The notes under the pieces were generated by a model. It made no database searches, was not told the DNA's origin, and was given only the letters and a program-made list of their open reading frames with translations. This document shows, piece after piece, positions 1 to 49,410 of a stretch of DNA of 64,000 nt (its first letter is position 1; each line of letters starts with the position of its first letter). Location of the stretch: positions 27,136 through 91,135 of IMG/VR virus record IMGVR_UViG_3300028883_000992, one strand, 5' to 3'. The position numbers were made by a program, and so were the translations under genes. The stretch is from a virus.

Positions 1-273
1 AATTTTTTTGAATGGGATAAACATAGACAAGAAATATATACATCAATAAAGCGCGGATATATAATAGATATAGATTTACTTGAACCGCGACATGTTCAAC
101 TTTTTTTAGATATGTGTGAAGATTTCTTTACAAACTTAGGTGAAACCCATATTATTTTTCAGTCTATGAAAGGACGTTTGAGAAAAGTAAGAGAATGGGC
201 AGACAGCAGAAGACTTAGATATAAGAAACTCGGCAACAAACATAAAATTCATGTTGGGAGAGTGAGTGGATAA
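1..273 (+). CDS. Hypothetical protein, 5'-truncated by window edge
   Basis: Frame 1 is open from base 1 (NFFEWDKHRQ...HVGRVSG) to TAA at 271-273 and overlaps the next start. Confidence 0.7.
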   Translation, partial: NFFEWDKHRQEIYTSIKRGYIIDIDLLEPRHVQLFLDMCEDFFTNLGETHIIFQSMKGRLRKVREWADSRRLRYKKLGNKHKIHVGRVSG

Positions 274-850
274 ATTTCAAGTTATATTTTACAAGGGTGA
301 CTACAAAGATCGCCAAGAACAAGCAAACAGAGATGACTGTGACCTATATGTTGAACAGCATTTAAATTCTGTAACCGACCCTACAATTGACTATGCCTGT
401 GTAATTACACGCAAGGTTCCAAATACAACAGAAGAAGCATTAGCTAAAACATATTGTGAAATGATTCATAATACGTTTGGTAATCAATGTCAAGGCGTTA
501 TTAAAGGTGGATTTAACGGCAGGGGGTCAAGAAATATAAGCACTTGCACAATGCCATCACTTCTATTGGAACCTCTTTTTATTTCCAATAGACAACATGT
601 AGACTGGCTAATGAATGGATTAGGCATACCTTTATTGGCAGTATGTTTAGCAGATACAATTAAAACTTATTACAAATCAGGAACAATAGGATTTAGTGTG
701 GGTCACAAATATAAAACTTCTAATCCAGATGATCGTGGAGCTAAAGTACCGGAATCATATTTGATACCATATTTAAATACATCAATTTATGAATCTGATA
801 TTTGTGAATCTATACTTCTCAAGGCAAAAAACATATTGGAGATGAAATGA
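266..850 (+). CDS. N-acetylmuramoyl-L-alanine amidase (Amidase_3), circularly permuted; probable endolysin
   Basis: R..AN...DLYVEQHLNS (H32) and MPSLLLEPLFISN (E102); the normally N-terminal motifs GFSVGH..DDRGA (H147) and YESDI (E176) are at the C-terminus. Confidence 0.8.
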   Translation: MDKFQVIFYKGDYKDRQEQANRDDCDLYVEQHLNSVTDPTIDYACVITRKVPNTTEEALAKTYCEMIHNTFGNQCQGVIKGGFNGRGSRNISTCTMPSLLLEPLFISNRQHVDWLMNGLGIPLLAVCLADTIKTYYKSGTIGFSVGHKYKTSNPDDRGAKVPESYLIPYLNTSIYESDICESILLKAKNILEMK

Positions 851-856
851 TTTTAG

Positions 857-1180
857 GTGCTATTTTACTATTATTTATACTTATATTTTGGTTTATTTGG
901 ATTGCTGAAAATGATTGAATCTTGGGACTATCTTGATAAGCATACATATTGGTATGTATTACTTATATACAAAAATAGTAGTGTGTATAAGATATTCCTA
1001 AATAAAAACAGTATCAATATAAAAGGCAGTTATCTTGAACAACCAACACCATTAAATGATTTAATTAACAGACTTATAAAGTTAGCTTTGATTGATAGCA
1101 AATTAATGTCATCATCTAATCTTGTAATACTCCAACAACTTAACGGAGATATAAATGGATTTTTCGGCAATCAACAATAG
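857..1180 (+). CDS. Hypothetical protein with hydrophobic N-terminus
   Basis: ORF fills the gap between co-oriented genes. Confidence 0.5.
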   Translation: MLFYYYLYLYFGLFGLLKMIESWDYLDKHTYWYVLLIYKNSSVYKIFLNKNSINIKGSYLEQPTPLNDLINRLIKLALIDSKLMSSSNLVILQQLNGDINGFFGNQQ

Positions 1181-3311: not shown

Positions 3312-3505
3312 AAGTAATATATTTACACATATGGTTAAACAATATTTTACGTTTTTTCAAACTACACAAGCATAGCTATAGAACCGTATATAGTTCTCCA
3401 TTATTTTTAATTAATAAATGTACTTGTGGTCATTTAAAATTTGTTTTAAGAAAAGACTTGATAGAATCGGTAGAAGATTGCAAAAAATATATTAAAAACC
3501 TATGA
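3308..3505 (+). CDS. Small hypothetical protein (HxH / CxCG possible metal site)
   Basis: ATGA overlaps at both ends; LHKHSY...KCTCGH. Confidence 0.6.
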   Translation: MKVIYLHIWLNNILRFFKLHKHSYRTVYSSPLFLINKCTCGHLKFVLRKDLIESVEDCKKYIKNL

Positions 3506-6291
3506 TACACCTACATTTACATACACATTATAGTGCTCTTGACGGATTTCTGACCGTACCTCAGTTAGTATCTGCGGTCAAGAAATTAGGTATGTCTGCT
3601 GTTGCTGTTACAGAGCATGGAAATATAAACTCATGGATAGAGTTCCAAATTGAATGTACAAAACAAGGTATTAAGCCTATATTTGGTATAGAAGCATATG
3701 TAACAACAGATGAATCTAATAAAACCAATTACCACATCACGCTACTTGCAAAAAATAACGAGGGGCTTAGAGAAATAATTAAGCTCCATAATACTGCCCA
3801 TCTTAACGAGCAAAAATATAGGGCACATAGAATTTACTATGATCAGATATTAGAATGTTCTAATATTATCGTATTGTCAGGATGCTTAAACTCGTACATA
3901 AACAGAATGGCATTAGCTGATCAAAAAGAAAAATGTAAGGAATGGATATATAAGTTCCAAAATCATTTTGGATCAGATTTCTATATAGAAATACAAGACC
4001 TCAATATAGAAGAACTTGATATAGCAAGAGAACGAATACTTAAATGGTTTCCTAATGTCCAAACTGTAATTACCAATGATGTACATTATGAAAATAGAAG
4101 TGATGCCGACTCACAGCATACATTATATTGTGCACATATTCACAAAAAAGAGGATGAATTTAAAAAACATCCACCTGAAATGTATATTAAAACCGACATA
4201 GAAGGATACGACACAAGTTCTACATATGAAATAGCAGACAAATGCAATGCATCAATAGAACCTTTTACTAACACTATTCCTAACTTCACAGAAGTAACTT
4301 GGATTCCTGAACGTATTATTGACAAACAACAATGCAGAAAAGAATACACTGTTATTAAAAAAGCGGGATATTGGCCTTATCTATGTATAGTTGCTGATTA
4401 CGTAAAATGGGCTAAAGAACATAATATAATGGTTGGGTATTCAAGAGGTTCAGCAGGTGGATCATTATTAGCTTACGCAATGGGGATACATGATATTGAT
4501 CCTATTAAATATGATTTATATTTCTCTCGTTTTTTTAATGAAGGACGCATAGACTCAATGCCTGACATTGATACTGATTTTCCTAAAAATGGAATAGCTC
4601 AAGTTAAAGATTATATTAAAAGCAAGTATCACCTAGTTGGATTAGGTACATACGGAACTATGGACGTTAAAAATGCTATTAAAATGGTATGTAGAACAAC
4701 TGGCGTACCACCTAATGAAGCAAATGAACTCACTAAAAGATATGGGGACGGATTAGATGTTGATTATAACCTACTTCCTGAAAATCACGCAAAGGCATTA
4801 AAACTGTCTGATCAATACAAAGGTTTACTAAATGCATATGGTCAACATGCTTCTGGATATATTCTAAGTCATATAAATCTTGAAGAAGAAGTGCCTGTAA
4901 GATACTCACGTACAGGTGATTTACAGACATGTTGGAATATGGATCATATGGAATGGTTGGGATTTGTCAAGTTTGACCTTTTAAAACTTACAACATTAGA
5001 CATTATACATGAAACATTAGAAAACATAGGTATCCAAAGAGATGATATTCCTATTGACGATAAACCTACATATGATCTAATTTCAACAGGAAAAACATTT
5101 GGGCTATTCCAAATAAGCGGATCAGATGGTATAGCAAACCTATGCAAGCAAATTCAACCTAAAAACATTGAAGATATTGGTATTATTATATCACTATATA
5201 GACCCGGACCAATGGAAAATAATTTTCATACACAATATATAGACAGGAAGAACGGTGCACCCGTAGAATACCTGCATCCATTCTTAGAGCCACTCCTACA
5301 AGATACATATGGAGTCATGATATACCAAGAACAAGTTATTAAAGTTTGTATGGCAGTAGGATTTTCAGATACAGAAGCAGATACTATTAGAAAAATAATG
5401 GGAAAAAAGAAGCCTGAGTTGCTTACAGATGTAGAGCCTCAATTCATAGAAAAGTGCAGTAAAATAACGGGTGAAAAAATCGCCAAAATACTATGGGAAC
5501 AATTAACAAAATATAGTCATTATAACTTTAATAAAGCTCACGCTATAGGATATGCATATTTAGCTTATATTACAGCATATTTAAAATGTCATTACCCACT
5601 ACAGTTTTATACTGCCATATTAAATCAGGAAACAAAATTAGTAGCCATACAGGAATGTATTAACGACATACAGGGTTTTAAGATATTGCCACCGCGTTAC
5701 GGAAAAAGTGAATATAATTTTAAGGTAGAAGGTTCTAATATAAGATACGGAATTAAAGCACTATATGGTATTGGCGAAAAAGAGATGGAAAGAATTAATG
5801 ATCCCAATTTCTTTAAACAAGGAAGTGTGGTTGCTGAACAACTTATTAAAGCAGGATTTTATGACACTATAAGTACCAACAGAAAGTCCTTAATTTCTCA
5901 ACAAAAACGCAGAAATCCAGAACTATTACTAATAGAACCATCAGATTTTACAAAGCAAGAAAAAGAGCAGTTTGAGTTTGATTTACTTCGTGTATACCTT
6001 GACAAGAATCCACTAAGTAGACTTGTAAAAGAATCAGTTTATACTGGAAATAACTACCAAATAGGCAACAGAATTCCTGTTATTATCCAAAAAGTAGAGA
6101 ATAAAACAAGTAAGAAGGGAAATAAATTTGCAAAGATACATACCATCAATATAAATAACAAAACTGATACCTTTTTTCTATGGGGAAAATCATATGAGAA
6201 ATTTATTTTAAAAGAAGGTTGTTATTATATTATAACACTTGACAAAACAGAAGATACTTTTTATATTACTAATGTACAGGAGCTAAAATAA
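3502..6291 (+). CDS. dnaE: DNA polymerase III alpha subunit (family C), compact
   Basis: PHP HLHLHTHYSALDG, RGSAGGSL, MPDIDTDF, GQHASG, KFDLLKL, YRPGP, IYQEQV, FNKAHA. Confidence 0.97.
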   Translation: MIHLHLHTHYSALDGFLTVPQLVSAVKKLGMSAVAVTEHGNINSWIEFQIECTKQGIKPIFGIEAYVTTDESNKTNYHITLLAKNNEGLREIIKLHNTAHLNEQKYRAHRIYYDQILECSNIIVLSGCLNSYINRMALADQKEKCKEWIYKFQNHFGSDFYIEIQDLNIEELDIARERILKWFPNVQTVITNDVHYENRSDADSQHTLYCAHIHKKEDEFKKHPPEMYIKTDIEGYDTSSTYEIADKCNASIEPFTNTIPNFTEVTWIPERIIDKQQCRKEYTVIKKAGYWPYLCIVADYVKWAKEHNIMVGYSRGSAGGSLLAYAMGIHDIDPIKYDLYFSRFFNEGRIDSMPDIDTDFPKNGIAQVKDYIKSKYHLVGLGTYGTMDVKNAIKMVCRTTGVPPNEANELTKRYGDGLDVDYNLLPENHAKALKLSDQYKGLLNAYGQHASGYILSHINLEEEVPVRYSRTGDLQTCWNMDHMEWLGFVKFDLLKLTTLDIIHETLENIGIQRDDIPIDDKPTYDLISTGKTFGLFQISGSDGIANLCKQIQPKNIEDIGIIISLYRPGPMENNFHTQYIDRKNGAPVEYLHPFLEPLLQDTYGVMIYQEQVIKVCMAVGFSDTEADTIRKIMGKKKPELLTDVEPQFIEKCSKITGEKIAKILWEQLTKYSHYNFNKAHAIGYAYLAYITAYLKCHYPLQFYTAILNQETKLVAIQECINDIQGFKILPPRYGKSEYNFKVEGSNIRYGIKALYGIGEKEMERINDPNFFKQGSVVAEQLIKAGFYDTISTNRKSLISQQKRRNPELLLIEPSDFTKQEKEQFEFDLLRVYLDKNPLSRLVKESVYTGNNYQIGNRIPVIIQKVENKTSKKGNKFAKIHTININNKTDTFFLWGKSYEKFILKEGCYYIITLDKTEDTFYITNVQELK

Positions 6292-49077: not shown

Positions 49078-49410
49078 TTATTTTTTCAATATACTCATAA
49101 TTTCTTTATGATTATCACTAATATCACATTTAATATCTGAAAGCTGCTTGTCTATATTTAAAACCTCCTTTTGAATACACGCATTTAAAAATGGATGTGC
49201 ATTAACATTACTAGAATGTCCTTCAATTGCACGATCAACTATTATATGTAATTCGTCTTGAATTTCCTGTCTAAATCGAGCGTTTTGATCTGTAATATCA
49301 TTTAATTTATAAAAAACTCCACCTGCTGTACTAACTACAGTAATTAAAATAGTTATTGTGGAGAAAAGTAATACTCGGTGTCCATTCATAGCGTCAATTA
49401 TTTTTTTCAT
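49078..49410 (-). CDS. Single-TM plus coiled-coil protein (holin-like or membrane protein)
   Basis: VLLFSTITILITVVSTAGGVFY TM segment. Confidence 0.45.
   Translation of the reverse strand: MKKIIDAMNGHRVLLFSTITILITVVSTAGGVFYKLNDITDQNARFRQEIQDELHIIVDRAIEGHSSNVNAHPFLNACIQKEVLNIDKQLSDIKCDISDNHKEIMSILKK

Follow-up and report, generated by a model that had tools for sequence, protein, structure and literature searches.

A natural circular permutant of the Amidase_3 catalytic domain as the probable lysin of a marine sediment phage

RESULTS

A permuted Amidase_3 domain in a phage genome

We have analysed a small phage protein, P0001, that by sequence is homologous to the Amidase_3 catalytic domain but does not follow the linear order of its structural elements. 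The best explanation of the whole body of evidence, to which we assign a probability of about 0.75, is that P0001 is this domain in a naturally circularly permuted form, serving as a phage lysin. The elements come in a permuted order in a confident single-domain model, four residues at the catalytic and metal positions are conserved, and the arrangement is fixed across a whole family. From its sequence, P0001 is likely an active Zn-dependent MurNAc-L-Ala amidase.

The gene lies in the window, as we call the whole 64,000-nucleotide stretch analysed, which corresponds to bases 27136-91135 of a 91-kb IMG/VR record obtained from a marine sediment metagenome. The record has 32.5% GC and looks phage-like from end to end. 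The sequencing-run search returned one DNA run, from a marine sediment metagenome and possibly the source, and no RNA run among the matches listed. The coordinates of the features are collected in Table 1.

Table 1. Features of the P0001 gene, its surroundings and related loci. Positions are those of the window unless a residue range or another locus is given.
Feature	Position	Strand	Details
Permuted Amidase_3 gene (P0001)	266-850	+	194 aa; GTG start at 266, TGA stop at 848-850
Shine-Dalgarno-like GGGAGAG	256-262	+	few nt 5' of the P0001 GTG; direct sequence reading
Residues 1-137	266-676	+	match canonical Amidase_3 from strand 2 to last helix; Pfam, VIA-align, hhalign
Residues 138-194	677-847	+	match canonical N-terminal strand 1 and helix 1; hhalign, shuffle control, AlphaFold2
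H32 codon	359-361	+	motif VEQHLNS; assigned third Zn ligand, from sequence
E102 codon	569-571	+	motif LLLEPLF; assigned catalytic Glu, from sequence
H147 codon	704-706	+	motif SVGH; assigned Zn-His, from sequence
E176 codon	791-793	+	assigned Zn-Glu, from sequence
Structural elements, first half	residues 4-8 (strand), 13-22 (helix), 27-31 (strand), 44-48 (strand), 54-71 (helix), 75-80 (strand)		AlphaFold2 model
Structural elements, second half	residues 98-102 (strand), 109-116 (helix), 120-135 (helix), 139-145 (strand), 176-192 (helix)		AlphaFold2 model
23-codon ORF	847-918	+	wholly hydrophobic peptide MILGAILLLFILIFWFIWIAEND; direct sequence reading
Gene block, 5' part		+	RtcB, orf117, patatin-like phospholipase, orf111, amidase, 23-codon ORF, orf89
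Gene block, 3' part, after orf89		+	nucleotidyltransferase, RecA/UvsX-like, PHROG "phosphatase" match, DnaE-type polymerase, primase
DnaE-type Pol III alpha, replicative polymerase	3502-6291	+	~31% identity to Streptomyces phages and Rossellomorea phage phiT1
Patatin-like phospholipase	G000:C1:26083-26916 (L096:7084-7917)	+	PF01734, E 6.7e-24; outside the window
110-aa ORF	49078-49410	-	one N-terminal TM segment; directly after the portal gene
Amidase-GerMN loci	L038:8684-9307, L040:8684-9307, L043:8768-9364, L031:8737-9342, L061:7307-7900		bacterial loci

The open reading frame, its boundaries and the numbering of H32, E102, H147 and E176, as given by an initial sequence-only reading of this DNA, were confirmed. 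The GTG start is supported by an alignment of 15 relatives, which open at the equivalent position. The first 8 nt of the gene also belong to the end of the upstream ORF (1-273), stop codon included. P0001 carries no N-terminal extension or hydrophobic leader. Just before E176 it has a loop insertion of nine residues (~aa 165-173) that is absent from 14 aligned relatives. The 23-codon ORF shares nucleotides with both neighbours, its ATG with the amidase stop (ATGA) and its stop with the ATG of the next ORF (911). The encoded 23-aa peptide had no PHROG match; judged from its sequence, it is a possible membrane peptide made by translational coupling, with a tie to the amidase that is unproven.

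Profile comparisons place the canonical N-terminus at the C-terminus of P0001

The Pfam Amidase_3 profile (PF01520) matched P0001 with 38.6 bits (gathering cut-off 27, E 1.5e-9). The match was limited to residues 12-117, equivalent to profile positions 55-157 of 174, and thus the first third of the domain is missing at the P0001 N-terminus. Nothing at that end corresponds to the first 54 profile positions, in which canonical enzymes carry their first zinc His and their zinc Glu. Searches of PHROGs gave matches to "endolysin" families with modest E-values. When the C-terminal 57 or 66 residues were compared alone with Pfam, no Amidase_3 match was obtained, only a sub-threshold one to DUF7814.

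The family profile of P0001 was compared by hhalign with a profile built from 65 PlyPSA-type catalytic domains, a canonical set that represents one subfamily (PlyPSA-like). In the native order, the first match placed query columns 1-155 on template 40-182 (score 92.4), and an alternative match placed columns 138-194 on template 1-41 (E 6.3e-5), as expected if the canonical N-terminal strand-helix is found at the C-terminus of P0001. With columns 138-194 put first, a single match resulted, running from 1-194 on 1-181 over 167 columns, and the score rose from the native 92.4 to 116.5 (E 2e-21). The full-length profile alignment was obtained only in this arrangement. The C-terminal piece scored 26.5, compared with 10.1 +/- 2.1 (maximum 18) for shuffled versions, none of 100 of which reached the real score, and with 9.4 for the reversed piece.

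The permuted alignment paired SVGH147 with SRGH10 of PlyPSA and DRGA with CVGA. The residue pairs were H147-H10, E176-E23, H32-H79 and E102-E141. Canonical Amidase_3 domains present the zinc His on strand 1, the zinc Glu on helix 1, a second zinc His on strand 3 and the catalytic Glu on strand 6; this H, E, H, E order is not kept in P0001, where the residues run H32, E102, H147, E176. The four residues fall on the positions assigned to the Amidase_3 zinc ligands and catalytic Glu, which in the AmiP structure are His17, Glu32 and His85 (zinc) and Glu145 (catalytic) (PMC9929850).

The sequence-only reading had predicted a gain in alignment on moving residues 138-194 to the front. At the profile-profile level this was the case, with one full-length alignment, whereas plain HMMER searches of single sequences against the PlyPSA-family HMM showed no gain in score or coverage between the native and the permuted order. 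The permuted family HMM behaved in an intermediate way, its coverage of PlyPSA extending from 68-169 to 18-169 with a modest gain of 6 bits. A phmmer search of P0001 against PDB sequences gave nothing relevant, and the family profile against the PDB gave second domains below threshold only, with the E-helix falling on ~27-48 of 4RN7 and 7TJ4. The assignment of the C-terminal piece rests on the profile-profile alignment and on the structural model; Pfam and HMMER gave no signal for the piece by itself.

The predicted structure contains all canonical elements, with strand 1 and helix 1 last

AlphaFold2, run with a 15-row alignment, returned a confident single-domain model (pLDDT 89, pTM 0.89). 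The six strands and five helices of the model (Table 1) account for all 11 canonical elements, strand 1 and helix 1 being the last. Strand 139-145 and helix 176-192 were modelled with pLDDT 90-98 within one compact domain.

We have scanned 48,161 PDB representatives with the P0001 model using VIA-align. The top matches were 14 Amidase_3 chains (Z 10.3-12.8, rmsd 2.1-2.9 A), and the next fold reached Z 7.6. The aligned part extended from residue 1 to ~135-139 of the model and fell on chain residues from ~40-50 onwards (44-178 in 1JWQ, 40-174 in 1XOV). Foldseek concurred, canonical amidases being matched only over the N-terminal ~139 residues of P0001; such sequential structure alignments skip the canonical first strand-helix. 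P0001 thus shares with the canonical domains the same fold over ~130 residues and four aligned catalytic and metal residues, at ~14-22% identity, but differs from them in having strand 1 and helix 1, with the Zn-His and the Zn-Glu, last and not first. Solved canonical structures include PlyPSA (1XOV), CD27L (3QAY), CwlV (1JWQ), AmiP (7B3N) and 4RN7 of C. difficile. AmiP is likewise single-domain and leaderless (PMC9929850).

An independent model was available through the ESM Atlas (pTM 0.91). There, a bacterial cluster of the permuted family was matched over the full length (TM 0.92, residues 3-194), whereas canonical amidase clusters were matched only over residues 1-137/139. The BFVD fold search gave no full-length match, and its top-ranked entries were canonical amidases aligned over ~125-150 columns. 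Sequence and fold searches of the PDB returned partial matches only and no solved structure with the permuted connectivity. In mean-field DCA on a 260-row alignment, most of the signal came from gap artefacts near the insertion specific to P0001, and it gave no information on strand pairing.

The permuted order is fixed in a large, mostly bacterial family

A word-indexed search found 199 relatives; searching exhaustively with HMMER brought this to 287 clusters (50% identity), and 173 of these were below 1e-10. The permutation is not peculiar to this phage: it is a fixed architecture of ~290 clusters at 50% identity, mostly bacterial, from marine and sediment bacteria and uncultured phages. The 15 relatives aligned were co-linear over the whole protein, with a common start (MY.V.FYKGDY) and a shared C-terminal motif (SVGHKYK...P.DRGA...E.D..E). 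The family motifs FYKGDY..RQ..AN, GG.NGRG..N and SVGHKYK...P.DRGA are distinct from the canonical ones.

All four key residues of the sequence-only reading were present, aligned to canonical positions and nearly invariant, H32, H147 and E176 each being kept in 259 of the 260 rows and E102 in 258. P0001 retains 33 of the 38 columns conserved at >=85% and departs from the other five by conservative substitutions or by the deletion of one residue. Together with the profile-profile alignment, the element order of the AlphaFold model and the structural alignments, this conservation bears out the core claim of a permutation.

Most bacterial members have a conserved C-terminal extension of ~35-60 residues (alignment columns ~201-260; pattern R..V..G.E.lW....D.DA.V.WD..RG.L.I), which P0001 does not have. 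In ten longer relatives tested, the Pfam Amidase_3 match began at ~position 55, with one weaker match from position 34. We have read the N-terminal extensions of 27 relatives for a duplication intermediate holding a canonical strand 1 and helix 1, and none was found. A tblastn search of 50,697 GenBank phage records gave no match at 1e-5.

Fusions and gene neighbourhoods of the family

The longer members were fused to an N-terminal Glucosaminidase/GH73 domain (PF01832; two proteins) or carried PG_binding_3 or PG_binding_1-like N-terminal segments. The same fusion partners are listed for canonical Amidase_3 in a review of cell-wall hydrolases (PMC6403190). Single members were fused to an S41 protease with PDZ and to TPR. 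A few members carry signal or Tat leaders.

We have retrieved 80 bacterial loci, mostly from MAGs of Desulfobacterota, Burkholderiales, large sulfur bacteria (Thiomargarita, Marithrix, Parabeggiatoa) and others. Clustering of conserved neighbours over 91 loci revealed no universal partner, and the highest-ranking clusters proved to be spurious, made up of overlapping ORFs from genomes of high GC content. Among 137 flanking ORFs scanned, the commonest neighbour was a GerMN ("Germane", PF10646) domain protein, found in 6 ORFs. In at least five bacterial loci (Table 1) the permuted amidase gene was immediately followed by the GerMN gene (~200 aa), which suggests that the two proteins form a partner pair; in L038 and L040 the start of the GerMN gene overlaps the extreme 3' end of the amidase ORF as listed. 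In L038, a Psychromonas MAG, genes for the sheath of a contractile tail (PF04984/PF17482) and for a tube of the gp19 type (PF06841) were found about 2 kb further downstream (L038:10763-12824), and these could belong to a prophage tail or to a contractile injection system. The L051 locus resembles a prophage: a large terminase of the T4 type is encoded 2.6 kb downstream of the amidase, and small hydrophobic ORFs lie between the two.

Relatives were also present on thirteen IMG/VR contigs. Their surroundings included an exonuclease and a prohead protease (L087), a RecE-like exonuclease and a tail fibre (L085) and, in L084, a tail sheath gene 5' of the amidase.

Peptidoglycan is the likely substrate, since the family fusions, the GerMN neighbours and the prophage-like locus L051 all count for it.

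The gene belongs to the replication arm and P0001 is the only wall hydrolase recognised

The replication-arm position noted in the sequence-only reading was borne out, since the amidase shares a plus-strand block with nucleotidyltransferase, RecA/UvsX-like, DnaE-type polymerase and primase genes, the structural genes being encoded on the minus strand from ~9.9 kb on. The patatin-like phospholipase gene is part of the same string of plus-strand genes and precedes the amidase, with only orf111 between them. An RtcB RNA ligase gene (PF01139, E 7e-106) and an HNH endonuclease gene were seen upstream of the patatin gene. When the phage patatin, orf111, orf89, orf117 and nucleotidyltransferase were compared by tblastn with all related loci, no co-occurrence was found.

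The 91-kb record gave no match to Phage_lysozyme, Amidase_2, SLT, M23, NlpC/P60 or GH25, so that P0001 was the sole peptidoglycan hydrolase found with the seven families tested. The record is 61% complete by the CheckV estimate, and hence another lysin may exist. No holin was recognised in the record. The "holin-like gene" that had been placed about 48 kb away does exist as a single-TM ORF, the only one of holin-like size (the 110-aa ORF of Table 1), but it matched no holin family in PHROGs. The flanks of the amidase do not form a lysis cassette; they consist of a 111-aa ORF, the 23-aa hydrophobic ORF, an 89-aa ORF, the nucleotidyltransferase and the RecA-like gene.

The evidence on the endolysin label of the sequence-only reading is divided. 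A hydrolase domain and the want of a leader speak for it, but there is no adjacent holin or lysis cassette, the phage contexts vary and many of the bacterial contexts are of a housekeeping kind. As no other lysin family was found in the record, yet no holin was recognised, "endolysin" is a plausible and reasonable working label that is not established. The patatin-like phospholipase, being near the only wall hydrolase, could be part of an unconventional lysis module.

DISCUSSION

Proposed enzyme and alternative roles

In the reading that we prefer, a circularly permuted phage lysin, the chain begins at canonical strand 2 and runs to the last helix, and a linker of 3-4 residues (KSG) joins this part to a C-terminal unit made up of canonical strand 1 and helix 1. 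Zinc would be coordinated by H147, E176 and H32, and a water molecule activated by E102 would cleave the amide bond between MurNAc and L-Ala, with all four residues converging on one predicted metal site. The enzyme would thereby cut peptidoglycan and, as the leaderless, single-domain lysin of the phage, would degrade the host wall, which it would reach through some membrane lesion.

The most serious competitor, which we consider a minority possibility, accepts a permuted and active amidase but not an endolysin: the enzyme would act in the cytoplasm in an AmpD-like manner, trimming muropeptides or precursors of the wall so that wall synthesis by the host is shut down or remodelled, or it would have a regulatory second role. 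There is a precedent in T7 lysozyme (gp3.5), a small leaderless MurNAc-L-Ala amidase that is encoded among DNA-metabolism genes and not in a lysis cassette, and that has a regulatory second role; it belongs to Amidase_2, a family unrelated to Amidase_3. In the present phage the gene likewise sits among early and replication genes, tightly coupled to its neighbours, and the relatives in other phages adjoin exonuclease, RecE-like or tail genes, not lysis cassettes. The family is mostly leaderless, with no N-terminal extension in 215 of 260 rows, and bacterial members occur in non-prophage contexts, as in L049, where the amidase lies between an M20 peptidase and an acyltransferase; Glyco_hydro_3 and MFS genes are near a few loci. 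This leaderless majority and the housekeeping contexts make a cytoplasmic role of the family possible. Endolysins are, however, normally leaderless as well, and the record yielded no other wall hydrolase; moreover, the fusions to PG-binding and glucosaminidase domains, the few signal-peptide forms and the prophage arrangement of L051 point to the wall as substrate.

Somewhat less probable, and in our opinion doubtful, is that permuted Amidase_3 proteins form a distinct clade with a biology of its own, leaderless, often paired with GerMN in bacteria and lying outside lysis cassettes in phages. In the phage, such an enzyme might act inside the cell and early, on wall precursors or recycling intermediates; alternatively, it might join the 23-aa membrane peptide and the neighbouring patatin-like phospholipase in a lysis module that needs no holin.

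That P0001 is a zinc hydrolase with this fold but with another substrate, for instance one of the polyglutamate or formyl-amide type like those of related families within the fold, seems improbable. Weaker structural matches to poly-gamma-glutamate hydrolases and carboxypeptidases (Z 5-6) and the residues conserved specifically in this family (Y13, R16, Q17, E30, R86 and D156) would fit it, but the Amidase_3 chains scored far above all other folds (Z 10.3-12.8 against <=7.6) and both the domains fused to family members and the GerMN neighbours have to do with the cell wall. An inactive Amidase_3 remnant with a truncated N-terminus and a chance resemblance in its tail is strongly disfavoured and very unlikely, as the partial domain detected by Pfam and HMMER and the want of an Amidase_3 match for the C-terminal piece alone are set against a tail that aligns co-linearly and with high conservation in 260 relatives (H147 and E176 being almost invariant), that matched the right 41 profile positions (P 6e-5, a score reached by 0/100 shuffles) and whose strand and helix were confidently modelled inside the compact domain.

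Relation to known permutations and meaning for the family

Natural circular permutants have a precedent among cell-wall hydrolase superfamilies in the permuted NlpC/P60 families (YaeF/poxvirus G6R and LRAT-like), in which the order of the catalytic residues is swapped (PMC6403190). NlpC/P60 enzymes differ in having a papain-like cysteine peptidase fold and chemistry. That review covers the Amidase_3 type as well, with no permutation in its account (PMC6403190). Our literature search, whose coverage left out most subscription journals, found no account of an Amidase_3 circular permutation, its matches concerning permuted genomes and NlpC/P60; given that coverage, the missing description is absence of evidence only.

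Amidase_3 domains are much-used catalytic modules in endolysin engineering and in cell-division studies (AmiA/B/C, CwlD, LytH). A permutant fixed in hundreds of lineages indicates that chain ends placed between helix 1 and strand 2 are compatible with the fold, and these would offer new attachment points for binding domains. Because of the permuted order, such proteins are reported in databases as truncated Amidase_3, and these truncated-looking matches invite mis-annotation as fragments or pseudogenes. The leaderless bacterial members and their GerMN partners raise the question of where these enzymes act and on what target. The permuted Amidase_3 is thus of relevance to structural evolution, to annotation and to lysin engineering.
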